The translations under genes and the position numbers were made by a program. Below the pieces are notes generated by a model. The model saw nothing but the letters and a program-made list of their open reading frames with translations. It was not told the DNA's origin and did no database searches. Source: a virus (lineage: Duplodnaviria; Heunggongvirae; Uroviricota; Caudoviricetes). Taken from it: DNA of 64,000 bases. Positions 590 to 40,482 of this stretch are shown one piece after another. Position 1 is the first letter of the stretch. Each line of letters opens with the position of its first letter. The stretch is taken from positions 1 through 64,000 of IMG/VR virus record IMGVR_UViG_2795385681_000001; one strand, written 5' to 3'.

Positions 590-669
590 ACCCATTGCGT
601 CGCACCTAACTCGTTTAGGTGCGTGCGTTGTGTGCTCAATGCATGCAAATACACGGAAGGGATAAGGAA
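590..669 (+). promoter_or_regulatory. conserved early intergenic cassette, copy 2
   Basis: gaacccattgcgt..hairpin..gcgttgtgtgctca..atacacggaagggata then ATG 670. Confidence 0.55.
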
Positions 670-828
670 ATGGACATCATTATTTGGACGGATGACGCGA
701 GTGTCAACGCCAAGGAGATAAACCAGGGTCTAACCAAGTACTGGGCGCGCTCAGTGCGCATCTACTTTAGGCCATCTGGTGAGCTACTGGACGAATACAT
801 CTTTACCGCTGGTGACGACGAGGATTAG
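670..828 (+). CDS. hypothetical protein (52 aa)
   Basis: Internal ATG of ORF 619..828 placed right after the conserved ACACGGAAGGGATA RBS motif. Confidence 0.45.
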   Translation: MDIIIWTDDASVNAKEINQGLTKYWARSVRIYFRPSGELLDEYIFTAGDDED

Positions 829-831
829 TGA

Positions 832-915
832 ACCCATTGCGTGACTCACAGAAGCAATTCTGTGGGTTGCGTTGTGTGCTCACGACACACAATCCACACA
901 CGGAAGGGATTAGAA
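832..915 (+). promoter_or_regulatory. conserved early intergenic cassette, copy 3
   Basis: gaacccattgcgt..hairpin..gcgttgtgtgctcacgacacacaatccacacacggaagggatt then ATG 916. Confidence 0.55.
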
Positions 916-1449
916 ATGGAGTTCACCGAAGTTTCCAATGAAGATGGTGTTGCCACGATCGTCATTAACGATCGGGGCGTAAGCGGTAAAGCCACGGTTT
1001 CGCTTTACGTTCATGTGCCCAGATATGACAACGACAACGAGTTTGTGACCCCTGCGGTTCACATTCGATTCCAGGGACGTGTAACGATCAACAACAAGGA
1101 CTACGACGCATGGCGGTGTAGTGCAGATTATGCGCCTGGACGCTGGGGTGATGCTGAACGCAAGGTATTGACCGACAAGGGGTTTAAGAAAGTCCTCTAC
1201 TCACCTAGTGCAGGTGGAACATTCCGCGAGCTCACAGATAGCGCGCGGAAGAAGCTAGAACAGCTCGCAGCCGTTGTAGCTGACAAGTACCTAACGACCG
1301 AAGCGTCTAAGGCGGCGATCGTTCGATCCGCTCAACACAAGGTGGTGGACGCCATCACCGAGAAAGAAAAGGCTGAGGCTGAGGTACTTGAGCGCATTGC
1401 CGAACTAGACAGCGCGCGTATATATCTCGCACAAATGGAACAACTCTAA
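916..1449 (+). CDS. hypothetical protein (177 aa)
   Basis: Start chosen at the ATG after the conserved RBS motif (MEFTEVSNEDG); ORF 841..1449. Confidence 0.6.
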   Translation: MEFTEVSNEDGVATIVINDRGVSGKATVSLYVHVPRYDNDNEFVTPAVHIRFQGRVTINNKDYDAWRCSADYAPGRWGDAERKVLTDKGFKKVLYSPSAGGTFRELTDSARKKLEQLAAVVADKYLTTEASKAAIVRSAQHKVVDAITEKEKAEAEVLERIAELDSARIYLAQMEQL

Positions 1450-1451
1450 GC

Positions 1452-1538
1452 GTATTGCTCGCTTCAGTCGGGCACGGTCTAACCGTGTCCGGTTGTGGCA
1501 ATCAATCACGAGATTGTCTACACACGGAAGGGATACGC
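1452..1538 (+). promoter_or_regulatory. conserved early intergenic cassette, copy 4
   Basis: hairpin gggcacggtctaaccgtgtcc then ctacacacggaagggatacgc then ATG 1539. Confidence 0.55.
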
Positions 1539-2123
1539 ATGTCGAAGAATCGGAAGTCTGACAGCCTCTCAGTCGATGAGATGGCCGACCGGCTCTTTTC
1601 AATCTGGCAGAGCGCGGCACCGTGGCAGCACGATGCGGGTACTAAGTGGTATGACGCTGCACGGCAGTGGGTTATTGAGGCTGCCGAACGTCACAACGTA
1701 AGCAATGAAGTGGTGGCCGGTGTTATCGCGGCCTACTCACCACAAACCCGATGGGTGGACAACCTGCGGGATGCTGAGTACCACCTAGCAGGTTCTCCCC
1801 TGCGCTCTGGCGTGATGGGGGCGAACGTTCGTCGCGCGGCTGCCGTTATTGAGCATGGATTAGAGGGACTAGGCAACGGGCCTAAGGTTAAAGCGTTCGC
1901 GCACAACATCCTTGGAGATACTGACGCTGTCACAGTAGATGTATGGGCAGCACGTGCAGCGTTCGGAACCATGGACAAAGCCATTGCCGCACAAACGATT
2001 GCGTGGGTTGGCGCCTATGACAAGGTGGCTGACGCATACCGCAAGGCAGCTGCCGCTGCTGGTGTTCCTGCCTCGGTAATGCAGGCAACCGTATGGGTAG
2101 CCATTAGAGGCAAAGCCGAATAG
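1539..2123 (+). CDS. hypothetical protein (194 aa)
   Basis: ATG after the conserved RBS (MSKNRKSD); ORF 1455..2123. Confidence 0.6.
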   Translation: MSKNRKSDSLSVDEMADRLFSIWQSAAPWQHDAGTKWYDAARQWVIEAAERHNVSNEVVAGVIAAYSPQTRWVDNLRDAEYHLAGSPLRSGVMGANVRRAAAVIEHGLEGLGNGPKVKAFAHNILGDTDAVTVDVWAARAAFGTMDKAIAAQTIAWVGAYDKVADAYRKAAAAAGVPASVMQATVWVAIRGKAE

Positions 2124-2125
2124 TT

Positions 2126-2253
2126 CTAGATAGGCAAAGTGGGTCACGGGTATTCCCGTGGCCCGCTTGGTGTATCTAGCACCAAAACACATCCTGACCA
2201 GCATCAATTGGGTAAGTGGTCGGATGGTTTCACCACACGGAAGGGATACCAAA
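2126..2253 (+). promoter_or_regulatory. conserved early intergenic cassette, copy 5 (extended)
   Basis: ataggcaaagtg + hairpin gggtcacgggtattcccgtggccc + cttggtgtatctagcaccaaaaca ... caccacacggaagggatacc then ATG 2254. Confidence 0.55.
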
Positions 2254-2676
2254 ATGTCAACACGTTCAATCCTCATGATTGCCACCGATACCGGAGACGC
2301 TGGTGTCTACGTACACAGTGATGGCTACCCGGACGGGGACTATGGCCGCTTGGCTGTATACAGCAAGATCATCGAACGCGATGGGGTGGATAAGTTCCGC
2401 GCCACTATCCTGGCCGGTGCCGAATTCGGCGGCTGGTCATCGATTTTCGGAGAAGACAACCCGAACAACCACCTTGGCACTGACCGGGCTAAGTCTGTAC
2501 CAGGTTACGGCGTGCGCTATCTCGACGCCGATAGCTACTTGATTCGCCCTGGCGATGATCTGTACGACTCTGGCGCTGAGTATATCTACCACGTTGCCAA
2601 GGACGGCACCATCACGTGGGCCGAGGTCAACAGCCGCGCATACAGCGCACTCACATGGAACCGATTCTCAGCCTGA
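2254..2676 (+). CDS. hypothetical protein (140 aa)
   Basis: ATG after the conserved RBS (MSTRSILMIATD); ORF 2158..2676. Confidence 0.6.
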   Translation: MSTRSILMIATDTGDAGVYVHSDGYPDGDYGRLAVYSKIIERDGVDKFRATILAGAEFGGWSSIFGEDNPNNHLGTDRAKSVPGYGVRYLDADSYLIRPGDDLYDSGAEYIYHVAKDGTITWAEVNSRAYSALTWNRFSA

Positions 2677-2678
2677 AT

Positions 2679-2752
2679 AGGCAAGGTGCGCAGCGGGTCA
2701 ACCCGTTGTGCGCCTGGTGTATTCAGCACCAACACACACGGAAGGGATACTA
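2679..2752 (+). promoter_or_regulatory. conserved early intergenic cassette, copy 6
   Basis: aataggcaaggtg + hairpin gcgcagcgggtcaacccgttgtgcgc + ctggtgtattcagcaccaacacacacggaagggatac then ATG 2753. Confidence 0.6.
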
Positions 2753-3517
2753 ATGGACGACAACAAGCGCGCCAAGATCACTGAGAAAGTGGCCAAGCTG
2801 CTCCGTCAGGCTGAGGATGTCGCGGGTACGCCCGAAGAGGGTGTGTTTCAAGCTCGCGCGTTCGAGATTGTGGCCAAGTACGGGCTAGACATGGCTCAAA
2901 TCCACGCGCGCAAAGAAGGTTTGGATATCTCAGACCTACCAGGCGCGGTCGAATGGTCACTATTCGTGCGTGGCAAGTACCAGTCAGCACAAGCCTTGTT
3001 GCTACATGGCATGGCTCGTGCCCTGCATTGCCGCACCGTCTACTCAAACAGTGGCGGTACCTACCACGTCTGGGTGTACGGCGTGCCTCACCATATCGAG
3101 CGTCTCCAGTTCCTATGGGAGATGTTGCGACCGCAGATGGTTCGACTTGTTGAGGCTGTACGGCCATCGTCGGAGTACCAGCGTATTCACGAGCGGTACG
3201 ACTGGGCCACTGACACTTTCACTACCAAGGTGGTGAAAGACGCTGGTCGGCTCAAGACCTACCGGCGTTCATGGCTTGCGGGTTATGCGCAGACCATTGA
3301 GTCGCGCATTTGTGAGCAGGAAACGATCGCCATCGAGTCAGTCGGTGGTGCTGCCATCGTGCTCTATCGGGGTGACGAACAGCGTGCCGAATTGGCAATG
3401 CAGGACGCTCACCCCCGCGCGCGGCAAGCCAAGACACGCACACGGTTTGACCGTGACGGCTACAGCCATGGTCAGCGTGACGGCAGTCAGGCTGAGTTTG
3501 CGCGAGCGATTGGCTGA
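2753..3517 (+). CDS. hypothetical protein with DUF2786-like N-terminal helical domain (254 aa)
   Basis: N-terminus KRAKITEKVAKLLRQAEDVAGTPEEGVFQARAFEIVAKYGLD resembles DUF2786; start after the conserved RBS. Confidence 0.55.
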   Translation: MDDNKRAKITEKVAKLLRQAEDVAGTPEEGVFQARAFEIVAKYGLDMAQIHARKEGLDISDLPGAVEWSLFVRGKYQSAQALLLHGMARALHCRTVYSNSGGTYHVWVYGVPHHIERLQFLWEMLRPQMVRLVEAVRPSSEYQRIHERYDWATDTFTTKVVKDAGRLKTYRRSWLAGYAQTIESRICEQETIAIESVGGAAIVLYRGDEQRAELAMQDAHPRARQAKTRTRFDRDGYSHGQRDGSQAEFARAIG

Positions 3518-3587
3518 GTCATGGATGCCGGATGGATTGTCGCCTGGATTGTCTGCGCGGCCATCTTCATAGCTCAATGCAAACCGT

Positions 3588-3675
3588 CTAAGTAGGGAAG
3601 GTGGGACGCGAAGGGGTACAAGCCTTTTCGTGTCCCGCCTGCTGTATTTAGACAGCACACACGGAAGGGATACCA
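3588..3675 (+). promoter_or_regulatory. conserved early intergenic cassette, copy 7
   Basis: agtagggaaggtg + hairpin gggacgcgaaggggtacaagccttttcgtgtccc + cctgctgtatttagacagcacacacggaagggatacc then ATG 3676. Confidence 0.6.
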
Positions 3676-3918
3676 ATGACAACCATCACGGCACGACCAC
3701 TGAATGTGATTGCGGACGAGATCAAAAGGGACTGGACTAAGCCCTATTTCGGCGCAGTCCCCTACCTGGACGCTATGGCAGCACTCGGCGACATCGACGA
3801 GCGCTATGGCTGTGACTCTGCTGAGTCCATCGTTCTGCACTTCCTGGCCAACTCTGGAACCTGGCGCGGTGAGGTAGCGCGGCGGATCAAGAGGGAGCTG
3901 AAAGACATTCTCGGCTGA
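3676..3918 (+). CDS. hypothetical protein (80 aa)
   Basis: ORF start coincides with the conserved RBS spacing. Confidence 0.55.
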   Translation: MTTITARPLNVIADEIKRDWTKPYFGAVPYLDAMAALGDIDERYGCDSAESIVLHFLANSGTWRGEVARRIKRELKDILG

Positions 3919-3919
3919 A

Positions 3920-3993
3920 TAGGGAGGGTGTGCGGCAGCTGCGCTGTCGTACGCCTGCTGTATTCAACGGCGATACACGGAAGGGATATCTAA
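3920..3993 (+). promoter_or_regulatory. conserved early intergenic cassette, copy 8
   Basis: aatagggagggtg + hairpin + cctgctgtattcaacggcgatacacggaagggatatc then ATG 3994. Confidence 0.6.
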
Positions 3994-4200
3994 ATGCATA
4001 CGTCTAGCATCCTCGGAACCGATGGAACCGGGGTTATGTGGCAGGGGCCTGGCAGGCTCAACCGAGCCGAGGCCTATAAAGAGGCCGAGCAGCACGCACT
4101 GTACTGGTTTGGCCGTAAGAGCGGTGATGTGTCGGTTGACGACGGCATAATTGTCCGCAACGGGGAGCATGTTGCAAACATCCTGGTAGAGAGGGTCTGA
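3994..4200 (+). CDS. hypothetical protein (68 aa)
   Basis: ORF directly after cassette copy 8. Confidence 0.55.
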   Translation: MHTSSILGTDGTGVMWQGPGRLNRAEAYKEAEQHALYWFGRKSGDVSVDDGIIVRNGEHVANILVERV

Positions 4201-4201
4201 G

Positions 4202-4474
4202 ATGGCTAAGACAACCAACGTTGTCCACCACAACGGGCAGACCTACACCCGAACGGGACGCCGATACTCACACCTGGTCATAGTCACGTCATCAGGGGCG
4301 CGACCCGTGATTCACTGGGCATCCACATTGGAGCTGGCAGAACGTAACGCCAGCCAGATTGCCGGGCGTCGTGACCGTGCTCGCAAGGGCACACTGCGCG
4401 GTGGGTGGGGAGTCGAATGGCACGCCGGTATCACCGACATCGATGTCGTGCCGGTTGAGCACGAATCTGAGTAG
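4202..4474 (+). CDS. hypothetical protein (90 aa)
   Basis: ORF starting 1 nt after the upstream stop (GAGATGG); translationally coupled. Confidence 0.5.
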   Translation: MAKTTNVVHHNGQTYTRTGRRYSHLVIVTSSGARPVIHWASTLELAERNASQIAGRRDRARKGTLRGGWGVEWHAGITDIDVVPVEHESE

Positions 4475-4476
4475 GC

Positions 4477-4545
4477 AGGATGGGACGCGAGTGTTCCTCG
4501 CGGCCCGTCTGGTGTGCTCAGCACCAACACGAGAAGGGATACAAC
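4477..4545 (+). promoter_or_regulatory. conserved early intergenic cassette, copy 9
   Basis: agtaggcaggatg + hairpin gggacgcgagtgttcctcgcggccc + gtctggtgtgctcagcaccaacacgagaagggatac then ATG 4546. Confidence 0.6.
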
Positions 4546-4776
4546 ATGGCACGAATCTGTTACCACACCAACGAGTCTTACTTCAGCCGCGACCACCAGG
4601 GTTACTCGGTTGCAAAGATCACCGAGAACGTGGCGGGGTATGAACCACTACCTGGCCACCACCGGCAGCTCAGTGACGCAGTGGCTATCGCTGACGGGCT
4701 GAACAAGGAGCAGGGCCTCACCCAGGATGACGTCTCGTACATTGTGGCCAGCTCAATGCGATTGGGCACGCTCTAG
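4546..4776 (+). CDS. hypothetical protein (76 aa)
   Basis: ATG after the conserved RBS (MARICYHTNES); ORF 4480..4776. Confidence 0.5.
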   Translation: MARICYHTNESYFSRDHQGYSVAKITENVAGYEPLPGHHRQLSDAVAIADGLNKEQGLTQDDVSYIVASSMRLGTL

Positions 4777-4906
4777 TGGACGCGCAACGGCTACGTTTAG
4801 CCAAGTTGTCCGACGAATACCGGACCACAATGGATGGTGAGGTACTCCACTCGTGGGCTAAGGATGTAGTCCGGCTGATCAGGGAGAGCGACGAGGGGTC
4901 GCAATG
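4776..4906 (+). CDS. possible small coupled ORF (GTG start, ~43 aa)
   Basis: GTG overlaps the upstream TAG; stop overlaps the next ATG (ATGA). Confidence 0.25.
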
Positions 4907-5122
4907 ATTCTCGCGGCCATCCTCATTGCAGGAGGCGTATCACTCACTCCCCCAACAGTTCCCGACTGCGCACGATTCGACGTGTGCAAGTACCAGCCAG
5001 GATACAACGGGCCCCTCATGCCCACCTGGAATACTCCGGGCACGTATGGGGGCTGGACCACCAATCCAGTCTTGTGTGACCCGGTCACGTACCAGTGTCA
5101 GCAAGTAGTACCAGGAAACTAG
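4904..5122 (+). CDS. small secreted or membrane Cys-rich protein (72 aa)
   Basis: N-terminal hydrophobic segment MILAAILIAGGVSL then six Cys. Confidence 0.45.
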   Translation: MILAAILIAGGVSLTPPTVPDCARFDVCKYQPGYNGPLMPTWNTPGTYGGWTTNPVLCDPVTYQCQQVVPGN

Positions 5123-5134
5123 AAAGGGGATCAC

Positions 5135-5326
5135 ATGGTTGAAGTATTGGCAGAAGATCAGCGCAGAGGGTGGCGACTCAAGCTTGCCGCAGTCCCACGG
5201 GTTGCCGATAGGGTACGGATTGAAGGTAAAGACGCGGAGGTGAAGAGTGTCGTTTGGATACCTCAGCCGTACGAGTTCGCTGCAGTAGTGCAGGTCAAAC
5301 TGCCGGTAGAGGGCAGGATGCTGTGA
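5135..5326 (+). CDS. hypothetical protein (63 aa)
   Basis: Good RBS aaagggga 6 nt upstream of the ATG. Confidence 0.5.
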   Translation: MVEVLAEDQRRGWRLKLAAVPRVADRVRIEGKDAEVKSVVWIPQPYEFAAVVQVKLPVEGRML

Positions 5327-5541
5327 GCACTGAGCAATACCGCATCATTCTAAAGATGGAGGACGGGTACAGCAATGAGGTAGTGGGAGAAGATCTTCCG
5401 CAGCTCATCACCACCACCAACGCGCTAGCAGCAGAACATGGTGGAGGGGATGCCCACGACTATCTCGACGAGAACGGATCCATCATCTACACCAACAACG
5501 GTCAGGCGACCGGACGGGCTGACGTAACGCCAGTCATCTAA
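5323..5541 (+). CDS. hypothetical protein (72 aa, GTG start overlapping the upstream stop)
   Basis: GTGA overlap with the upstream stop; in frame with ORF 5254..5541. Confidence 0.4.
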   Translation: MSTEQYRIILKMEDGYSNEVVGEDLPQLITTTNALAAEHGGGDAHDYLDENGSIIYTNNGQATGRADVTPVI

Positions 5542-5559
5542 CACATCTGAATATGGAGG

Positions 5560-5600
5560 AGCCGCAGCGGGAGTAATTCCGTTGCGGCTCTGCTGTTTTC
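5560..5600 (+). terminator. rho-independent terminator (first of a tandem pair)
   Basis: gccgcagcgg-gagtaattc-cgttgcggc hairpin followed by tctgctgtttt. Confidence 0.65.
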
Positions 5601-5606
5601 AGCGCA

Positions 5607-5650
5607 AGGGCATGGGACTCGCGAACCCGTGCCCTTTTTCTATGCCCATA
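5607..5650 (+). terminator. rho-independent terminator (second of the tandem pair)
   Basis: gggcatggg-actcgcgaa-cccgtgccc hairpin followed by tttttc. Confidence 0.6.
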
Positions 5651-5662
5651 GGAAGGGACTAC

Positions 5663-6130
5663 ATGTTATTGGAAGGCTGGACATCAACACCTGTTGAACA
5701 CGAACGACTCACTCGCACCGAGGTAGTCGAGCATGAGCGCTATTGGTCCAAGATGGTCCTGAAGGCGCGCAACCTCCGCCGCAAATATGACCGCGCGGTA
5801 TGGCTCAGTGACGCAAATCGGGCTGAGAGCCTCGCAGAGGCACTGAGATCACTTGGGCCCTCTATGTTGTACGCCCACGGTCGTTGGGAGCGCCACGGGC
5901 GCTGGAACCGCTACTACCAAGTGCGTGGCGGCGCTGTGCACACCACACTCACGTGCCGATGCATCAATGGGGACACAGTATTGAACCCGCTCCCCCAATT
6001 CGCCGGTCGGTCAAGGAAGTTCATCGCAGATCGGTACAAGCTGTGCCGCCACTGTGGAGATAGCAACACGGGTGACATCCCCAGCGACCGCGCATATCGG
6101 TCATTCAAGGTCTACCTACTGATGGCCTAA
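5663..6130 (+). CDS. hypothetical protein (155 aa)
   Basis: ATG after ataggaagggactac, an RBS resembling the conserved one; ORF 5582..6130. Confidence 0.5.
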   Translation: MLLEGWTSTPVEHERLTRTEVVEHERYWSKMVLKARNLRRKYDRAVWLSDANRAESLAEALRSLGPSMLYAHGRWERHGRWNRYYQVRGGAVHTTLTCRCINGDTVLNPLPQFAGRSRKFIADRYKLCRHCGDSNTGDIPSDRAYRSFKVYLLMA

Positions 6131-6131
6131 A

Positions 6132-6199
6132 ACACGCCTTGCCCTGCATTAAGTGGGTCGGGTTTACGTTCTAAATACACGACGGAAGGGATACCCAAA
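6132..6199 (+). promoter_or_regulatory. conserved early intergenic cassette, copy 10 (partial)
   Basis: gggtcgggtttacgttctaaatacacgacggaagggataccc then ATG 6200. Confidence 0.45.
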
Positions 6200-13140: not shown

Positions 13141-13154
13141 GGTTCATGTGGGTA
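13141..13154 (+). promoter_or_regulatory. 14-bp repeat GGTTCATGTGGGTA (copy at the RtcB start)
   Basis: Exact match. The minus strand reads TACCCACATGAACC, giving an 11-codon mini-ORF MNPKRLNTIGT* whose TGA overlaps the RtcB ATG. Confidence 0.6.
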
Positions 13155-16486: not shown

Positions 16487-16781
16487 ATTTTTGTTAGAGG
16501 CTGAGAGTACACCTGCTATCGAGAACCTTTGCGGCATTATTGATTCGCCACTTCTCCACGTCATTCCTGAACGTAGTTCTCACGCCCGGTCGGTTACGCC
16601 AACCACTCGTCATGCCGAAAGCTACTCCGCGACTTTGGTTTCGCGATGGGATGGCCGTCCCATCGTTGCGCTACTTGTCTACGAACCACCGTCGCCTTGC
16701 GAGCTCGTGATGGCCCTGGTTCCCGAAGGCCAGGGATTAGAGGCGCTTTTGCTCCTCGGCAGGGGAAGGACTTTTGCTTTT

Positions 16782-16851
16782 ATTGACGACGGGAATCGAA
16801 CCCGCACATCCTGTTCCATATACAGGTGGCCTGCCGTTGGCCTACGTCATT
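16782..16851 (-). tRNA. tRNA (anticodon ambiguous, loop atATGga)
   Basis: T-arm cggg-TTCGATT-cccg; D-arm ggccaacggcaggcc; anticodon stem cctgt/acagg perfect. Confidence 0.5.
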
Positions 16852-17292
16852 CTCGCAGCGGAGAATGATTTGACTGAAGACGTGCTTCCCCATGAAGTTC
16901 CGAACCCTTTTGGGGCACAGAATGCTTCACGTCTCTCGCGCTTTCGCCTGGCGGGGCTAATAACACTCTCTCTCAACCGCATTGCGAGCCGTCACCCGAC
17001 GCGAGATCGATCATGGAAAACGCCCTTGCTTGCGAGGTTCGGACTCAGTTCCCTCCGCTCCACAGGAGGCTTGTTCAATAGCGCTTTCCACCGCACGACG
17101 GCTTGGTAGTCCCACCGGTTCACGGCCCTGGACTCACGCGTAACTCGCCACCTGGCAGCCATCTCTGACTGCTCAAGGATTGGATTGCATGGATTGCCCT
17201 TGCGGGTGGTGGGTTGTCACCCCACCTTTCACCACCTTGCGGTGACTTATGGGCCATGCCCCGAATGTCTAAACAATATCCCCCACAACAGA

Positions 17293-17305
17293 GTTCGTGT
17301 GGGTG
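17293..17305 (+). promoter_or_regulatory. variant copy of the 14-bp repeat (GTTCGTGTGGGTG) in the intra-array spacer
   Basis: 12/13 match to GTTCATGTGGGTG. Confidence 0.4.
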
Positions 17306-19187: not shown

Positions 19188-19201
19188 TACCCACATGAAC
19201 C
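19188..19201 (-). promoter_or_regulatory. 14-bp repeat (minus strand reads GGTTCATGTGGGTA) just upstream of the tRNA/tmRNA array
   Basis: Exact TACCCACATGAACC on the + strand, between the terminator at 19209-19247 and tRNA-Trp; position fits a promoter for the array. Confidence 0.55.
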
Positions 19202-28507: not shown

Positions 28508-29152
28508 CTAGATACCCAACTCGCGGCACACCAAACTGAACAACTGGCTAAAGAAGTTCGATGACTTCCCAATGCGTGCAGCCAGATCCGTAGTAGGAGT
28601 GGATGGATTTGCAATGACTGCATCCACCACGTCCAAGCATGCCTGACGGCCCTGGTGACCCACGCGACGGTGGAACACAGCGAACTCAGGCTGAGAGGAC
28701 AGCATCTCGTGAGCCAACCGCGCTTTGACCAGGCGATTGCGGTAGCGGGTATCCACACCGTTGTGCTCATGGAGAGCCTCACCCGGTAGTGGCTCTACCG
28801 GGTGATAGGTGATCTTCTTGATCGCGGGCCACTCGGGGCGCAACGCAGCGCGCTCAGCAGGGGTGGTTCCACCCCAGATGCCGAACTCCTCGCCATTCTC
28901 CAGGGCCCAGGTACGGCACTTATCCCTCACGGGGCAGCGTGAGCACGTGGCCTTTGCGCGTTGTTCGGCATAGGCCACCATTTCTGTAGCCAGATCCTGC
29001 GGAACTCCATCCTCCACGAGGTCTTCCACGGTCTGGAAGTGGGACTCAGTATCAGATGGATCGCACACAGCTTTGCTGCGCCAATCAAGATCCAGGTCGC
29101 TAGCCGGTGATGGGTGGTCGATAATAGCGGTCATTTGGTTGTATCCCTTCAA
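28508..29152 (-). CDS. whiB: WhiB-family transcriptional regulator with a C-terminal extension
   Basis: AVCDPSDTESHF..ATCSRCPVRDKCRTWALENGEEFGIWGGTTPAER: four Cys and the GIWGG turn. Confidence 0.7.
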   Translation of the reverse strand: MKGYNQMTAIIDHPSPASDLDLDWRSKAVCDPSDTESHFQTVEDLVEDGVPQDLATEMVAYAEQRAKATCSRCPVRDKCRTWALENGEEFGIWGGTTPAERAALRPEWPAIKKITYHPVEPLPGEALHEHNGVDTRYRNRLVKARLAHEMLSSQPEFAVFHRRVGHQGRQACLDVVDAVIANPSTPTTDLAARIGKSSNFFSQLFSLVCRELGI

Positions 29153-29629
29153 TCAATCCCGGTCGTGTACCGGAATTTTTGTTGCAAGTGCGACAAGTTC
29201 GGCGAGAGTACAGCTAACCCACTGCTTCATGGGATCGGTTGTGCCCTTGCGCTTGTGAACGAAGAACCCGGCAAGAGCGCCCGCGTTCTTGGCCTCCACT
29301 TTAGCCTCCCCGACCCCTTCGGGAAGGCTTAATGTAGTTACGTCCTTAGTTTCGATAACGATGTCTTGGCCACCGATTCGGAAGTTGACAACGTCACCCT
29401 TGTCGACACTCCCCCAGCTTGGTGCAACTTGAATGTTGGGATCCTGCAATGCCTCTCGCAGACCATCAACAATAAGGCGATTGAACTTCGCCCCTGCGGC
29501 TTTCGCCGAACTTCGGTTCCTACTCAACGACCCGCTACCTTTACGTTCGAACCTTCTCACGCGACAGACCGTCAACCTCCCCGGTTGGCTGTCCGTCGTT
29601 GGAATCACCATACCGAGAGGGTATGACAT
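29153..29629 (-). CDS. PD-(D/E)XK nuclease-like protein
   Basis: GDVVNF...DIVIETK (D..ExK) motif; start MSYPLG 4 nt downstream of a 14-bp repeat copy. Confidence 0.4.
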   Translation of the reverse strand: MSYPLGMVIPTTDSQPGRLTVCRVRRFERKGSGSLSRNRSSAKAAGAKFNRLIVDGLREALQDPNIQVAPSWGSVDKGDVVNFRIGGQDIVIETKDVTTLSLPEGVGEAKVEAKNAGALAGFFVHKRKGTTDPMKQWVSCTLAELVALATKIPVHDRD

Positions 29630-29633
29630 GCGG

Positions 29634-29646
29634 TACCCACATGAAC
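29634..29646 (-). promoter_or_regulatory. 14-bp repeat (minus sense GTTCATGTGGGTA) directly upstream of an ATG
   Basis: + strand TACCCACATGAAC; 4 nt before the ATG of 29153..29629. Confidence 0.55.
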
Positions 29647-29775
29647 TGCAAACGATCCCCCACCTCCCCATTAGCTTCCTCCCAGCTCCCTGTCAGGAGA
29701 CTGTAACCCCGGTCACATGGGGTAAAAATCTGGGGATTGTTGATTACCAAACAACTACTGGGTGAGGTTTGCCGT

Positions 29776-36778: not shown

Positions 36779-37417
36779 TTAGGCGCTCGCAAGCAGCTCA
36801 AAGTGGGCAGCTGTCGCGGTCAGTGCATCGACATCAGTGGAGCTCACTACCGCACCTCCATCTGGGTACGTCTCGGCGAACCATGCCTGAACGTCCTTCG
36901 ACACGACACCGGCAGCCTTGGCTGCGGCCTTTACGCGCTCGAGTGCCTCAGCGGCTTCGGGGTTGGTAGCGACCTTCTTCGGCGTGGCCTTACGCGGCGC
37001 GGCCTTGGCTGGAGCTGATGCCGCGTTCCCGTCATCGTCCACATCTGCCACCAGACCAAGCGCAGCCATGTAGGCGTAGCGACGTGCGTAGGTGATCGCG
37101 GAGCCGTGAGCCTGCGGATCATTCTTCACCGGGTGGAGGACCATCGTCGAAGCGGACTGCTCACCGCTCTCATGGATGACAACAGACTTGAGGGTGTCGT
37201 AGATCTTGCCATCGGCATTGAAGTACGAAGGCTGCTGCGACACAGCAAGTCCATGCTTGGCCAGTACCGGCTGAGCCTCGCGCATCACTGCAGGAAGGTC
37301 CGCATACTTCGACTTGAAGAACGGGTTCTGAGTGTCCTTGGCTACGAAGCCAACTTCGGCCTGGAAGGCAACGAGGGCCTCTGCGAGGGTTGAATGCTTG
37401 ACGGCTTCGCTCACCAT
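36779..37417 (-). CDS. ERF-family single-strand annealing protein
   Basis: FQAEVGFVAKDTQNPFFKSKYADLPAVMREAQPVLAKHGL; RBS taggag before ATG 37417. Confidence 0.7.
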   Translation of the reverse strand: MVSEAVKHSTLAEALVAFQAEVGFVAKDTQNPFFKSKYADLPAVMREAQPVLAKHGLAVSQQPSYFNADGKIYDTLKSVVIHESGEQSASTMVLHPVKNDPQAHGSAITYARRYAYMAALGLVADVDDDGNAASAPAKAAPRKATPKKVATNPEAAEALERVKAAAKAAGVVSKDVQAWFAETYPDGGAVVSSTDVDALTATAAHFELLASA

Positions 37418-37478
37418 GCTCCTATGTAGAGAAAAACGAAAAAAATGAATGCCCATGGCCACCATGGGATTTGAAACA

Positions 37479-37697
37479 TCAATTGAGGGTCTTGTCGAGC
37501 ACCTTGGTGATGAGCACCAGAATCCCCGCAAGCATGGCCATCACGAGCAGGAAGGCAGTTCCTGCCCACATGGGAGCGGTGACCCACCACCAGGACCAAT
37601 CCTGGACTGGGTTATCCCAGGGACAGATCTTCAAGAGGGCAAGGATGCCAAAAAGGAGGGTGCAGCCAATCGTGCCGCCTGTGCTGGAATCACTCAC
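37479..37697 (-). CDS. small membrane protein (72 aa, GTG start)
   Basis: GTGA overlap with the upstream stop; two TM helices and a W-rich segment. Confidence 0.35.
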   Translation of the reverse strand: MSDSSTGGTIGCTLLFGILALLKICPWDNPVQDWSWWWVTAPMWAGTAFLLVMAMLAGILVLITKVLDKTLN

Positions 37698-38098
37698 GCT
37701 GGTGTCACTTTCTTCTGAGCCTGTAGGACCGCGCCGTGACTCCGGGCGACTCCACGGATGAGTTCCACGACCTGCCCCTGCGTACGGGCCGGGTCGTCGT
37801 TGTAGGCCGACACATCCCCACCGAATCCAGCTGGGAGCGCGCGCGAAATCAACCGGTGGGCTCCCCACCAGGTCCGGGCGTCGTCCTTCGCTGCCGACTT
37901 ACCTACTGCGGCGTCAAGAGCCCCAAGGATGTCGTAGCGCATACCGTCGCCTACCCGCTCAAAGCGGATTCCCTGAGTCCATCCGTTTGCCACAAGACGG
38001 GCCCCGATCTGCAGAGTTGCCGATACCGCGTCTGGATTATCAAGCACGACAACGTTGTTATTACGCGCCAAGCGACGTAGCCAGTTAGCAGTAGACAT
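37694..38098 (-). CDS. hypothetical protein (134 aa), first gene of the leftward operon
   Basis: Start MSTANWLRRLARNNN; a 14-bp repeat copy lies 17 nt upstream. Confidence 0.45.
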   Translation of the reverse strand: MSTANWLRRLARNNNVVVLDNPDAVSATLQIGARLVANGWTQGIRFERVGDGMRYDILGALDAAVGKSAAKDDARTWWGAHRLISRALPAGFGGDVSAYNDDPARTQGQVVELIRGVARSHGAVLQAQKKVTPA

Positions 38099-38115
38099 AG
38101 CTGCAATTCTATCAA

Positions 38116-38358
38116 CTACCCACATGATGCAGTTTGCTGGCGAACAAGCCAACTGTTGTCTCGCACCACATCAAGAGGCCATGGCTCAACGTCCATTCCT
38201 CGGAGTTCTTTGCACATCCGCCCGCGCTGGATCTTCAGCGTCAGTACAGCGTCTGCATCAGATTCCTTGTGCCGCTCGCGAATTGCCTCGTCAAGCAGGA
38301 AGAGCTCAAGGATGTTTTCGTTCCGACTCTCCAGGAACTTGGCTGCGGATTCACTCAC
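38116..38358 (-). CDS. possible small protein (80 aa, GTG start) in the regulatory hub
   Basis: Listed ORF with protein-like composition but no RBS; doubtful. Confidence 0.2.
   Translation of the reverse strand: MSESAAKFLESRNENILELFLLDEAIRERHKESDADAVLTLKIQRGRMCKELRGMDVEPWPLDVVRDNSWLVRQQTASCG
38117..38129 (-). promoter_or_regulatory. 14-bp repeat (TACCCACATGATG), candidate leftward promoter/operator
   Basis: 12/13 match, 17 nt upstream of ATG 38098. Confidence 0.5.
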
Positions 38359-38388
38359 GCCCCAAGCGTGGTGCTACTCCCCGACTGT

Positions 38389-38401
38389 GTTCGTGTGGGT
38401 T
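38389..38401 (+). promoter_or_regulatory. variant 14-bp repeat (GTTCGTGTGGGTT)
   Basis: 11/13 match, in the divergent region. Confidence 0.35.
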
Positions 38402-38573
38402 TGAGCGCCGAGGGACACGACCCCCTCGGCGGCGCAACTGCGCACTCAGGTCGACAGGAAGGGATACTACTTTGCTCGGCCTCCCTGAGTCTCGAGACCC
38501 ATTCTACTGATGCTCCCATTCCTGGACTTCCTGATTGAAGATTCCCGCGTGTTTAAGCAGGTCACAGTGGTTT

Positions 38574-38587
38574 CACCCACATGAACC
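38574..38587 (-). promoter_or_regulatory. 14-bp repeat (CACCCACATGAACC)
   Basis: 13/14 match; the + strand encodes the mini-ORF MNPAPCRSLPKRRVRTQ*. Confidence 0.5.
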
Positions 38588-38836
38588 CTGCACCGTGTCG
38601 TAGCCTCCCTAAAAGGAGAGTGCGAACGCAGTGAGCACGCACCTCCCGCTAGGGAGGCCCACGCCGGATAGGCGTGGCTGCCCGAAGGGCATACAACCTC
38701 CAGACCGCAGTGTCCCCACTTGGGCAGGGTTCTCGGTGCAATGAATAACCCTTGCAGTCAACGCATCTCACGTTGACATAGAGGTAGTCGTTACGTAAGT
38801 CGGGAACGCTACTAGAGCGCGTGCGCGCGGGATAGC

Positions 38837-38850
38837 CACCCACACGAACC
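38837..38850 (-). promoter_or_regulatory. variant 14-bp repeat (CACCCACACGAACC) 20 nt upstream of the first rightward gene
   Basis: 12/14 match. Confidence 0.4.
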
Positions 38851-38869
38851 CGGAACGCGGTGCAACACT

Positions 38870-39304
38870 TTGGCTATGGGAATTGCTTACACGCCCGCTC
38901 GTTCAGCATCCATCGAGTACAAAGCCGAGTCGGGCATGATTCCGTGTTCTGCCGTAGCCACGTCAGCACGGCAGAACGAGTGGACCATATCGATTGGCGA
39001 CGTTCACCGCTTCATCCTTTCCGGGAATCGAAGCAAGGCCGAGGAGCTAGTGCAGGCATACGGCGAGCTCTACGACTTCGCGTTTACCGCTCCCGTCAAA
39101 CCACGTGAGCTCCAGAGGCTGGACTGCGACGAAGCCCGCGACGGCACGGTTTGGGCTGACTCGGATGAGGGGTTCCCTTTCCACTACCAATTCCGTGGAC
39201 ATCATTGGGAATACTTCGCCCTCGAAGGTGTCCGCAAGTGGACGGTGCTGGACGACCCGGACACGCTAACCAGCCATGGCCCTTACACAGAGGTAGTTAA
39301 GTGA
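38870..39304 (+). CDS. hypothetical protein (144 aa), first gene of the rightward operon
   Basis: Listed ORF. Confidence 0.5.
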   Translation: MAMGIAYTPARSASIEYKAESGMIPCSAVATSARQNEWTISIGDVHRFILSGNRSKAEELVQAYGELYDFAFTAPVKPRELQRLDCDEARDGTVWADSDEGFPFHYQFRGHHWEYFALEGVRKWTVLDDPDTLTSHGPYTEVVK

Positions 39305-40104
39305 GCCACCACTCCCCTCGACATAGGGAGATCGCATCGAGAGGTCTGATTCTCCTCACCGAGGTTGGATCCGGTCTGCATGGTGTGACTCTCGCCAACA
39401 CTGACGACCATGACGAGATGGGCGTTTGCATCCCACCACCGGAATGCGTGCTGGGACTGGAGAAGTTCGAGCAGTACGCCGATCGCTGGCACGCTGATGG
39501 TACTCGCATTCCCGATGGTGTGCGTAGCCAGCACGGGGACACTGACCACACGACGTACGCACTGAACAAGTGGGCACGCCTTGCGGCGCAGGGTAATCCG
39601 ACTGTGCTACCGCCGTTGTTCGCACCACCCAAATCCATCTACCACAAGTCCCCAGAAGGCCAACAGATCGTATCTAACCGGAATCTGTTCCTCTCCAAGG
39701 ACGCTGGGTGGAGGTTCCATGGGTACCTCAAGGATCAGCGCGCACGTATGGTCGGCGAGAAGGGTAAGTCCAAGCACAAGAACCGCCACGAGCTGGTCGA
39801 GCAGTTCGGTTTCGATACCAAGATGGCGTACCACGCTCTTCGCTTGGCCGTCCAAGGTGCGCAACTAATGACGCACCACAACATCACCATCCCGATGCAT
39901 GCGATCGATGTGACGTGGCTACGCGCAGTTCGACGCGGTGATTACGCGCTGGAAACGGTTACCGAATGGCTGGACACCTACACCGAAGGCCTTGAGGCCA
40001 ACATCGAAACGTCCACGCTGCCTGATCACGTCGACCACGACCAACTGAACGACTTTCTCATCGGCCTGCACTACAGCTTCTGGAAACGCACGGGACAACT
40101 TTGA
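39301..40104 (+). CDS. pol-beta-superfamily nucleotidyltransferase-domain protein
   Basis: GSGLHGVTLANTDDHDEMGV fits the GS-x(9-11)-DxD nucleotidyltransferase motif; GTG start overlapping the upstream stop. Confidence 0.5.
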   Translation: MSHHSPRHREIASRGLILLTEVGSGLHGVTLANTDDHDEMGVCIPPPECVLGLEKFEQYADRWHADGTRIPDGVRSQHGDTDHTTYALNKWARLAAQGNPTVLPPLFAPPKSIYHKSPEGQQIVSNRNLFLSKDAGWRFHGYLKDQRARMVGEKGKSKHKNRHELVEQFGFDTKMAYHALRLAVQGAQLMTHHNITIPMHAIDVTWLRAVRRGDYALETVTEWLDTYTEGLEANIETSTLPDHVDHDQLNDFLIGLHYSFWKRTGQL

Positions 40105-40122: not shown

Positions 40123-40482
40123 ATGAGTAACAAGCGCAAGGACAGCATCGGAGTTCTCTCCAAGACTCAGGGAATGGTGAAGCTCGCGAAGCCAGGCCCG
40201 CCCATCGCCGTTGGCACACGGGTCACTGGACACAACCTTGGCGCGGTAACCCACATCGTCTCCATTGAGGCTGAGCGCGTAGGCGAGAAGCGCGGCGTGG
40301 GAATTACTTTCAACGAGGATGGCAGCCTGAACGCAGTGAGCATCCACTCAGCTGAGGGTGCACTCGCGGAGTTCAAGCCAGGCGTCCATCTAGTCATCGG
40401 CGATACGGGCGATGTTGTCGTCTTCGACGATGACAACTTCTATGACCCCAGCAGCGGTGACCCTGTCGTCGAGGTTCCCTGA
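40123..40482 (+). CDS. hypothetical protein (119 aa)
   Basis: Preceded by gaacacgaagggatacgcat, the same RBS motif as the early arm. Confidence 0.55.
   Translation: MSNKRKDSIGVLSKTQGMVKLAKPGPPIAVGTRVTGHNLGAVTHIVSIEAERVGEKRGVGITFNEDGSLNAVSIHSAEGALAEFKPGVHLVIGDTGDVVVFDDDNFYDPSSGDPVVEVP

Follow-up and report, generated by a model that had tools for sequence, protein, structure and literature searches.

Introduction

What is kept in the gap between the leftward and the rightward genes of a tailed phage, and what could it do there? The question is raised by a window of 64,000 nucleotides, the whole stretch of DNA that was analysed (positions 1 to 64,000 of IMG/VR record IMGVR_UViG_2795385681_000001; Caudoviricetes), and in particular by its interval from 38100 to 38870, which separates a leftward block of genes from a rightward operon. 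A sequence-only reading had described this interval as lacking any convincing open reading frame (ORF), with copies of a 14-bp repeat, an orphan ribosome-binding site (RBS) motif and two very short ORFs, and had seen in it a switch region that could house divergent promoters, operators or a replication origin. Comparison with related phages leads us to an explanation that, taken as a whole, we hold with moderate confidence: apart from a gene at its left end, the interval would be the central divergent control region of a temperate mycobacteriophage of the Cluster M/MabI type. The divergent control region of the earlier proposal stands, whereas its coding content had been mis-stated, the mini-ORFs over-read and the conserved non-coding blocks missed.

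A conserved gap in two groups of mycobacteriophages

Throughout the region, the window is ~80-83% identical to the Mycobacterium abscessus Cluster MabI prophages prophiGD54-2, prophiT49-2 and prophi86-1, which are classified in the Mclasvirinae (Vilmaviridae). The genome organisation of MabI prophages has been described as resembling that of Cluster M mycobacteriophages, with the gene to the left of the gap at the head of the predicted early-lytic arm, and the authors describing these prophages call the location of their repressor “unclear”. The second gene of the rightward operon encodes an RlaP RNA-repair nucleotidyltransferase (PF10127), and the window also encodes 22 transfer RNA (tRNA) genes, a transfer-messenger RNA and a GOLLD RNA.

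Our comparison set comprised ten MabI-like and eight Cluster M phages. The MabI-like members were the three GenBank prophages and seven IMG/VR contigs recovered via the conserved core of the region, which together with the window gave an alignment of 11 sequences; in Cluster M, the syntenic gap (~560 bp) was located through the flanking proteins and its alignment has 590 columns. Two near-invariant blocks stand out in the 11-sequence alignment, block A (38388-38510) and block B (~38597-38835). Identity to T49-2 is 97.6% in block A and 95.7% in the RNA part of block B, 65-79% in the flanking coding sequences and 31-50% in the two spacers. Over the whole comparison, the blocks reach 96-98% identity, as opposed to 64-80% for the flanking genes and 24-53% for the spacers. 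The proteins that flank the gap are just 33-57% identical between the window and the Cluster M phages. None of the 32 GenBank records examined (29 of Cluster M and 3 of MabI) has an annotated feature inside the gap. As far as checked, no record notes the arrangement of four promoter-like sites described below, the use of different repeats by the subgroups in fixed places, or the conserved RNA candidate. To the left, the gap is closed by a gene of 80 aa (38116..38358, -), to which we come back later; with this gene taken into account, the true intergenic gap extends from ~38359 to 38875, about 515 bp.

Four promoter-like sites and a family-specific repeat

The 14-mer CACCCACAYGAACC contains a core, ACCCACAYGAAC, of which the 64 kb hold 10 exact copies, where ~0.015 would be expected. 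Copies in both orientations had been noticed around the gap, and they are there: two exact ones at 38574-38587 (+) and 38837-38850 (+), one at 38388-38401 (-) with an exact 12-nt core, and a degenerate one at 38117-38130 (+; TACCCACATGATGC, 11/14), which overlaps the stop codon of the 80-aa gene. The degenerate copy has neither a -10 hexamer nor an ORF downstream in the + orientation, and is probably not functional as a promoter. The repeat occupies the position of a -35 element: a -10-like hexamer follows after 12-17 nt and itself lies 6-8 nt before a start codon. The sequence TANNNT occurs 14-15 nt past the core end at seven of the ten core copies (binomial estimate, ~1e-10), an ATG that opens an ORF of 71-408 aa is found at 26-27 nt from four of them, and several copies come directly after terminator-like hairpins.

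Two of the copies lie at the edges of the gap and face outward. The outer leftward leaderless site, P_L2 (38356..38401, -), combines the 14-mer at 38401-38388, a weak -10 (CACGCT, 38370-38365) and the GTG at 38358, whereas its rightward counterpart P_R (38837..38878, +) combines the 14-mer at 38837-38850, a weak -10 (AACACT, 38864-38869) and the ATG at 38876, which opens the first gene of the RlaP operon. The geometry of these outer sites, scored in 15 genomes, is constant while the intervening bases vary. The leftward copy is followed in 15/15 genomes by N-A-N-N-N-T and, 6-8 nt later, by GTG; the rightward one, also in 15/15, by N-A-N-N-N-T after 13-14 nt and by ATG 6-7 nt later. The outer hexamers retain A2 and T6 alone. 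A leaderless layout, that is, a hexamer 6-8 nt before the ATG or GTG of a conserved ORF with no Shine-Dalgarno sequence, is found at P_R and P_L2 in the 15 genomes and at four further copies in the window.

Between the outer pair, two inner sites are arranged back to back. P_sRNA (38574..38606, +) consists of the 14-mer at 38574-38587, a 13-nt spacer and the -10 TAGCCT (38601-38606), with a predicted start at ~38611-38614, and its layout matches that of six other copies in the window. P_L1 is a leftward -10, TAGAAT, at 38506-38501 (-), with a predicted start near 38494. The P_L1 hexamer is invariant among MabI-like sequences and keeps T-A-N-N-N-T in 8/8 Cluster M phages through six different hexamers; the -10 of P_sRNA keeps the same pattern in Cluster M through five. 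In the whole 590-column Cluster M alignment, in-register T, A and T with varying middle bases occur at only two places, which are the two inner -10s. The SigA-type -10 T-A-N-N-N-T is present at P_sRNA, at P_L1 and at a third site (TGATAGAAT) beyond the 80-aa gene. Just upstream of P_sRNA, a motif GCAGGTCA (38557..38564) is conserved in all groups, and M1, M3 and Nanosmite have a copy of it on each side of their repeat. The divergent promoters that had been suggested are, as predicted elements, well supported by this comparison, with four outward-facing sites whose key bases stay in register in up to 15 genomes.

Cluster M phages carry a different repeat, CCTGTAATCAC, of the form CCTGTAATC(A/G)C, at the same three positions of the gap: leftward by the first early gene, rightward before the conserved core, and rightward before the first rightward gene. 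A further copy in MrMagoo shows the same layout (motif, 14 nt, TACCGT, 8 nt, ATG). The presence of a different repeat at the same places suggests that it is read by a factor which the phage encodes and which evolved along with the sites, and the weak -10s of the outer sites probably imply a dependence on such a phage-encoded factor reading the 14-mer. We propose that the 14-mer would be a phage-specific promoter element in the -35 position and that the resulting messenger RNAs would be leaderless, with P_L2 driving the GTG at 38358 of the first early gene and P_R the ATG at 38876 of the RlaP operon. The inner promoters would fire between them, P_sRNA starting a non-coding RNA at ~38613 and P_L1 transcribing block A.

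A spacing between 14-mer and -10 that is fixed within 1 nt at 7/10 sites fits the recruitment of RNA polymerase better than it fits a competing role for the repeat, an operator or stoperator-like site of an immunity repressor that would shut the promoters in the lysogen. The outer promoters, with a weak -10 and no -35, also agree better with a recruiting element than with a blocker. Nevertheless, the 14-mer has no symmetry, its copies are scattered and most of them run in the direction of transcription. MabI-like and Cluster M phages have distinct sequences in the corresponding places, as immunity specificity would predict, no repressor is known for these phages, and the 38388 copy, being downstream of P_L1, could serve as a roadblock. 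Under such a role the promoter map would hold and the sign of control would differ; we regard it as possible, although rather unlikely.

Other copies of the repeat can be mentioned here. The copies at 19188-19201 (+) and 29634-29647 (+) might be operator-type sites or antisense starts. The copy at 13141-13154 (-) comes just past a terminator hairpin and a tRNA-Glu, and is followed by TACGAT, 6 nt and the ATG of a 408-aa ORF, which by synteny with gene 127 of prophiGD54-2 is an RtcB-like RNA ligase; with this identity, RtcB would be a leaderless, repeat-dependent unit. A promoter-like copy with TATTGT at 17292-17305 (-) is located ~330 nt upstream of a full-length GOLLD RNA (16498-16937, -; Rfam RF02032, 203 bits), which lies in the tRNA array and has a tRNA (16781-16851) nested inside. 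At 28508-29175 (-), the window encodes a 208-aa WhiB-family protein with PF02467 at residues 18-98 and a 110-residue C-terminal half without family assignment. This WhiB-like protein could be the reader of the 14-mer, but it is only a candidate.

A candidate small RNA after the inner rightward promoter-like site

To the right of P_sRNA, block B contains a candidate small non-coding RNA on the + strand, which would span at least 38613..38728 and maybe reach ~38830. It comprises a 5′ core (38613-38638), a helix called H2 (38659-38677) and a hairpin (38679-38691). The 5′ core (AAGGAGAGTGCGAACGCAGTGAGC..., ~26 nt) is near-identical across phages whose flanking proteins share just a third to somewhat over a half of their residues, as given above. 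H2 (CCACGCC-GGATA-GGCGTGG) covaries, with 5/7 pairs changed on both sides, 96% of cells paired, one of 500 shuffles reaching its score and slid controls that collapse. Moreover, a U.G pair of H2 in MrMagoo and Estes fits the + strand only, as it would be A.C on the - strand. These covariation tests rest on 4-6 distinct sequences and have limited power, and helices other than H2 and the hairpin A of block A are unsupported by them. A long-range helix at 38679-38726 was dropped, being broken without compensation in the T49-2 clade.

Coding does not account for the block: single-base indels at 38608, 38693 and 38740 break every ORF in block B. The 17-codon MNP ORF (ATG-AAC-CCT) that had been pointed out at 38581 is present, but it is not conserved as a coding unit, with an indel that trims it to 7 codons in the T49-2 clade. 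In the M2 phages, the RNA is followed by a GC-rich hairpin with a U-tract, an intrinsic terminator that the scan called in MrMagoo. The non-coding element that follows P_sRNA is, as far as can be told from these comparisons, probably a new small RNA.

Rfam returned nothing at gathering score in the gap and nothing at E<=10 in 38300-38950. A 23-mer of the RNA core had no match in the genome contig collection, and a 24-position pattern of it had none in the metagenome contig collection; a 17-mer gave ~120 matches in genome contigs, which is the chance level, and all were discarded since none had the extended core. With the core scans null or at chance level, the element is apparently confined to Cluster M and MabI phages. 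A literature search on mycobacteriophage non-coding RNAs gave nothing useful. The sole match of a search for targets of the core within the phage was a 14-nt exact direct repeat, GAACGCAGTGAGCA, at 40329-40342 (+), on the non-coding strand within a 119-aa ORF of the rightward operon, and it is borderline with respect to shuffles (maximum 13 in 30).

Block A and an antisense of the ribosome-binding module

Block A starts, after the leftward copy of the repeat, with hairpin A (38406..38431), which has a 9-bp stem (38406-38414 with 38423-38431) and the loop ACACGACC (38415-38422). The loop is identical in all groups, and the differences in the stem are compensated, with 94% of cells paired, 4/10 pairs changed on both sides, 0/500 shuffles reaching the score and slid controls that collapse. 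It is followed by the orphan RBS module (38453..38510, +), whose core GACAGGAAGGGATAC (38453-38467) is separated by 4 nt from the 12-codon TTG ORF (38472-38510), both being present as the sequence-only reading had reported. The minus strand of 38453-38467 is an exact antisense of the RBS core.

This module belongs to a family made of a stem-loop, ACACGGAAGGGATAC, 2-6 nt and an ATG, which precedes at least 10 genes, mostly small and on the integrase side. Eight copies are found at 656-6185 (+), together with others at 29141 (-) and 40109 (+), most of them with the stem-loop upstream, and equivalent modules exist in the right arms of MrMagoo and PegLeg. The genes sharing the antisense-matched module, at least 10, include that of the WhiB-like transcription factor. 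The eight small genes at 656-6185 (+) carry an unusually uniform cassette of ~35 nt, where a hairpin such as CTGGTG-TATTCA-GCACCA is followed by ACACACACGGAAGGGATAC, 2-6 nt and ATG. The WhiB-like gene (28508-29175, -) is preceded by the only other hairpin with a ACACGACC loop in the early arm and by the module GAAGGGATAC.

The copy at 38453 does not behave as the RBS of a gene, as just the 12-codon TTG ORF follows it and the eight Cluster M phages have no start. Their syntenic counterpart, GAAGGGAA(A)TACC, is not followed by a start codon, which indicates that there it is not a working RBS. The conservation of block A stops just upstream of the P_L1 hexamer; at its other end the block reaches the P_L2 repeat, and promoter elements thus account for both edges. 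Given the conserved -10 on the minus strand, we infer that block A is more probably transcribed leftward. The P_L1 transcript would be a structured leader, with hairpin A and a sequence exactly antisense to the core of the shared ribosome-binding module.

The opposite direction, in which block A is a rightward translation unit whose module (38406-38467) has the 12-codon TTG ORF translated, e.g., into a leader peptide, seems improbable to us. The module has the same sense as the working copies, the TTG comes 4 nt after it, inside the 2-6 nt range, and the plus strand of the block folds well (z = -3.4). The length of the TTG ORF is kept in 11/11 MabI-like sequences, even through a TGA-to-TAA change, but the four substitutions inside it are all (4/4) non-synonymous, Cluster M phages lack a start codon at its position, and the ORF is not conserved as a coding unit. 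Besides, no conserved plus-strand -10 is found upstream of it, whereas the conserved minus-strand -10 lies downstream.

A broader scheme can be drawn from these elements, where the lysis-lysogeny decision of Cluster M/MabI phages would be largely controlled by RNA: the small RNA or the antisense-RBS leader would act in trans and determine immunity or timing, and the 14-mer would be read by a WhiB-type factor replacing the sigma -35 contact. We present it as a speculation with little chance of being correct in full.

Two general explanations bear on both blocks. Similarity within them could result from recent recombination of a mosaic module and not from functional selection, since phage genomes are mosaic and MabI-like sequences vary little within the blocks. 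However, Cluster M phages retain the core, the hairpin loop and the -10 registers in spite of the low identity of flanking proteins quoted above, the stems of hairpin A and H2 covary, and the block edges coincide with promoter elements, all of which make recombination a very improbable cause. The replication origin that had been contemplated earlier, with the 14-mers as iterons, finds some ground in the non-coding nature of the region, in its repeated motifs and hairpins, and in its AT maximum (40-nt), which reaches the 99th percentile of the window at 38741-38780. The region shows, on the other hand, neither a GC-skew inflection nor DnaA boxes nor a marked AT-rich tract, the 14-mers are not clustered like iterons but spread over >40 kb at promoter-like positions, and in relatives the genes of a RepA-like initiator and of a helicase lie ~6.5 kb away; an origin at this place is hardly to be expected.

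Evidence against the map and the opposite strand

Several results weigh against the control region as we have drawn it. At P_L2, the spacer in the window is 16-17 nt long, compared with 13-14 at the other copies. Two of the ten copies of the repeat, both exact and in the early arm (19188-19201 and 29634-29647), run counter to the transcription around them, with no -10 at the correct distance. A consensus sigma-70 scan of 37000-40000 and of the M1 and M2 gaps found no promoter, and TTGACA-like -35 hexamers are absent, a scan that is uninformative here because mycobacterial promoters have no -35 consensus. Regarding the RNA, the scan found no canonical terminator after it in the window, so that its 3′ end may lie anywhere from 38728, the minimum, to perhaps ~38830; in PegLeg (M1) no terminator was called either, the T-run beginning 6 nt past the stem. 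No convincing target of the RNA core was found within the phage. The consensus fold energies of the RNA region are -31.8 (+) and -30.6 (-), single-sequence z-scores are mixed, and in MrMagoo the complement of the core with its T-run was flagged as a minus-strand terminator. Finally, the conservation of 38729-38835 is left unexplained by the map of promoters and RNA. A call of the strand by thermodynamics was tried and was not decisive, as both strands fold about equally.

Some of these observations would be accommodated by a non-coding RNA from the minus strand, or by a sense/antisense pair, starting at a -10 at 38811-38806 and ending at the hairpin formed by the core complement with UUUU (38616-38613). 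The hexamer is conserved in register (TAGCGT in the window and TACCGT in relatives, with TACCGT inside the invariant CCTACGGTAC in Cluster M), the consensus fold of the minus strand matches that of the plus strand in stability, the hairpin and T-run flagged at the core in MrMagoo have the right orientation, and such an RNA would account for the conservation of 38729-38835 in MabI-like phages. However, the invariance of the Cluster M hexamer makes it uninformative about selection for a -10, and no repeat element lies upstream of 38811-38806. The minus-strand hairpin needs four G.U pairs in M2 and has a stem that the groups do not share, while the strong GC-rich hairpin with a U-tract of M2 works for the plus strand only. 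On the minus strand, H2 would have C.A and C.U mismatches where the plus strand has U.G. We consider this alternative fairly unlikely, and keep the plus-strand RNA started by P_sRNA as the preferred candidate.

The stretch in question, 38729..38835, is non-coding and 89-94% identical, with the possible minus-strand -10 just mentioned. It has two dyads, GTCAACG-N7-CGTTGAC (38757-38777) and TTACGTAA (38791-38798); a hairpin at 38757-38777 and a TTGACA at 38773 were rejected, as they are not conserved in the T49-2 clade. The gaps of Cluster M phages (2640-2660 in L011, 2650-2670 in L012, and equivalents) contain an invariant 10-bp palindrome, TTGGTACCAA, with TAGGTA-c-TACCTA nearby. These palindromes sit between the terminator of the RNA and the rightward promoter, and the window has TTACGTAA at the equivalent place. 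The palindromes TTGGTACCAA and TTACGTAA may be group-specific operator sites; several conserved palindromes and the 14-mer itself would be the candidates for the operators that the sequence-only reading had suggested.

The left end of the interval

The claim that the interval had no convincing ORF does not hold for its left third, which is coding. The minus strand of 38116..38358 encodes an 80-aa, gp57-like protein, the first of the leftward early arm, with a probable start at GTG 38358. The protein matches phrog_15756 end to end and has syntenic homologs that are 76-79% identical in MabI prophages and ~35% in M2 phages. Its substitutions by codon position, e.g., 11/10/29, show the third-position excess of a coding sequence. 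Its structure model is a helical hairpin with no helix-turn-helix, and it was discarded as a regulator, as was the product of the first gene on the other side, whose gp56-like model, at a predicted local distance difference test (pLDDT) score of 33, was unusable.

Relatives carry an annotated 20-codon N-terminal extension of the gp57 homologs. It maps to 38359-38387, the most variable stretch, which contains indels and is 24-31% identical, and for this reason the GTG at 38358 is the likelier start. In the three GenBank prophages (N-termini of genes 57/65/67; 5866-5925 in L001 and 5860-5919 in L002 and L003) the annotated ATG overlaps the repeat, and the conserved GTG 60 nt downstream of it is a better fit to the family profile and to the leaderless geometry. 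The start codon of these three gp57 homologs is probably mis-annotated.

Beyond this gene lies the third SigA-type site, an extended -10 promoter-like sequence (38098..38114, -) called the gp58 site. It is followed after 7 nt by the ATG at 38098 in a leaderless layout, and the gene that starts there encodes a DUF6197 protein (Pfam). Its hexamer, TAGAAT or TAAAAT, is kept in register in all MabI-like sequences.

Significance

Clinical Mycobacterium abscessus commonly carries MabI prophages, and Cluster M is a well-studied group in teaching that is also relevant for therapy. In these phages, an unannotated gap of 0.5 kb becomes a map with four predicted starts, a family-specific promoter element and a conserved small RNA candidate. 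If the RNA or the antisense-RBS leader turned out to be regulatory, control of this kind would be unusual among actinobacteriophages; otherwise, the region would be an ordinary phage promoter hub.

Comparison with known systems

Regulatory RNAs are made in the switch regions of several phages, such as lambda OOP, P22 sar, P1/P7 c4 and the P4 CI RNA. The candidate described here resembles them as a short transcript with a predicted promoter of its own (and, in M2, its own terminator) between divergent early units. It differs from all of them in having no sequence or Rfam similarity, and the search for antisense targets in the phage found none.

The leaderless transcription units of mycobacteria have a TANNNT -10 but lack a conserved -35, and their transcripts begin with the start codon itself, at its A or G. 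The outer sites of the window share with them the A2/T6 hexamer 6-8 nt before ATG or GTG and the lack of a Shine-Dalgarno sequence, but add a conserved 14-mer upstream and lack the first T of the hexamer.

In the middle promoters of T4, a MotA box together with AsiA allows sigma appropriation, and the motif replaces the -35 at ~12-13 nt from a TAnnnT -10, which defines a promoter class served by the host RNA polymerase together with a phage factor. The sites of the window likewise have a phage-specific motif in the -35 place at a fixed short distance to TAnnnT, although the motif is unrelated and many of the promoters in the window are leaderless. To our knowledge, no homolog of MotA or AsiA is known here.

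The stoperators of Cluster A phages, the repressor sites of L5 and Bxb1, are asymmetric sequences of 13-14 bp, dispersed and mostly co-oriented, with ~24-30 per genome. The repeats of the window are also asymmetric and dispersed, and differ in sequence between related phage groups. Unlike stoperators, which have no fixed spacing to a -10 or a start, ~10 sites of the window are at a fixed promoter register.

Conserved repeats of Cluster M mycobacteriophages, named CR1-CR4, were reportedly described by Pope et al. in 2014 (J Virol 88:2461). The repeats of the window fall in this previously described class. They show the CR3/CR4-type pattern, where an RBS repeat and a stem-loop precede many small integrase-side genes, in the same lineage, Mclasvirinae. 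According to PMC7953290, the Cluster M repeats are short and intergenic, and stem-loops precede the RBS-associated repeat. The core of the RBS module is GAAGGGATAC in the window and GAGAAGGGAA in Cluster M, and the repeat in promoter position is CACCCACAYGAACC in the former and CCTGTAATCAC in the latter, at the same three places of the gap.

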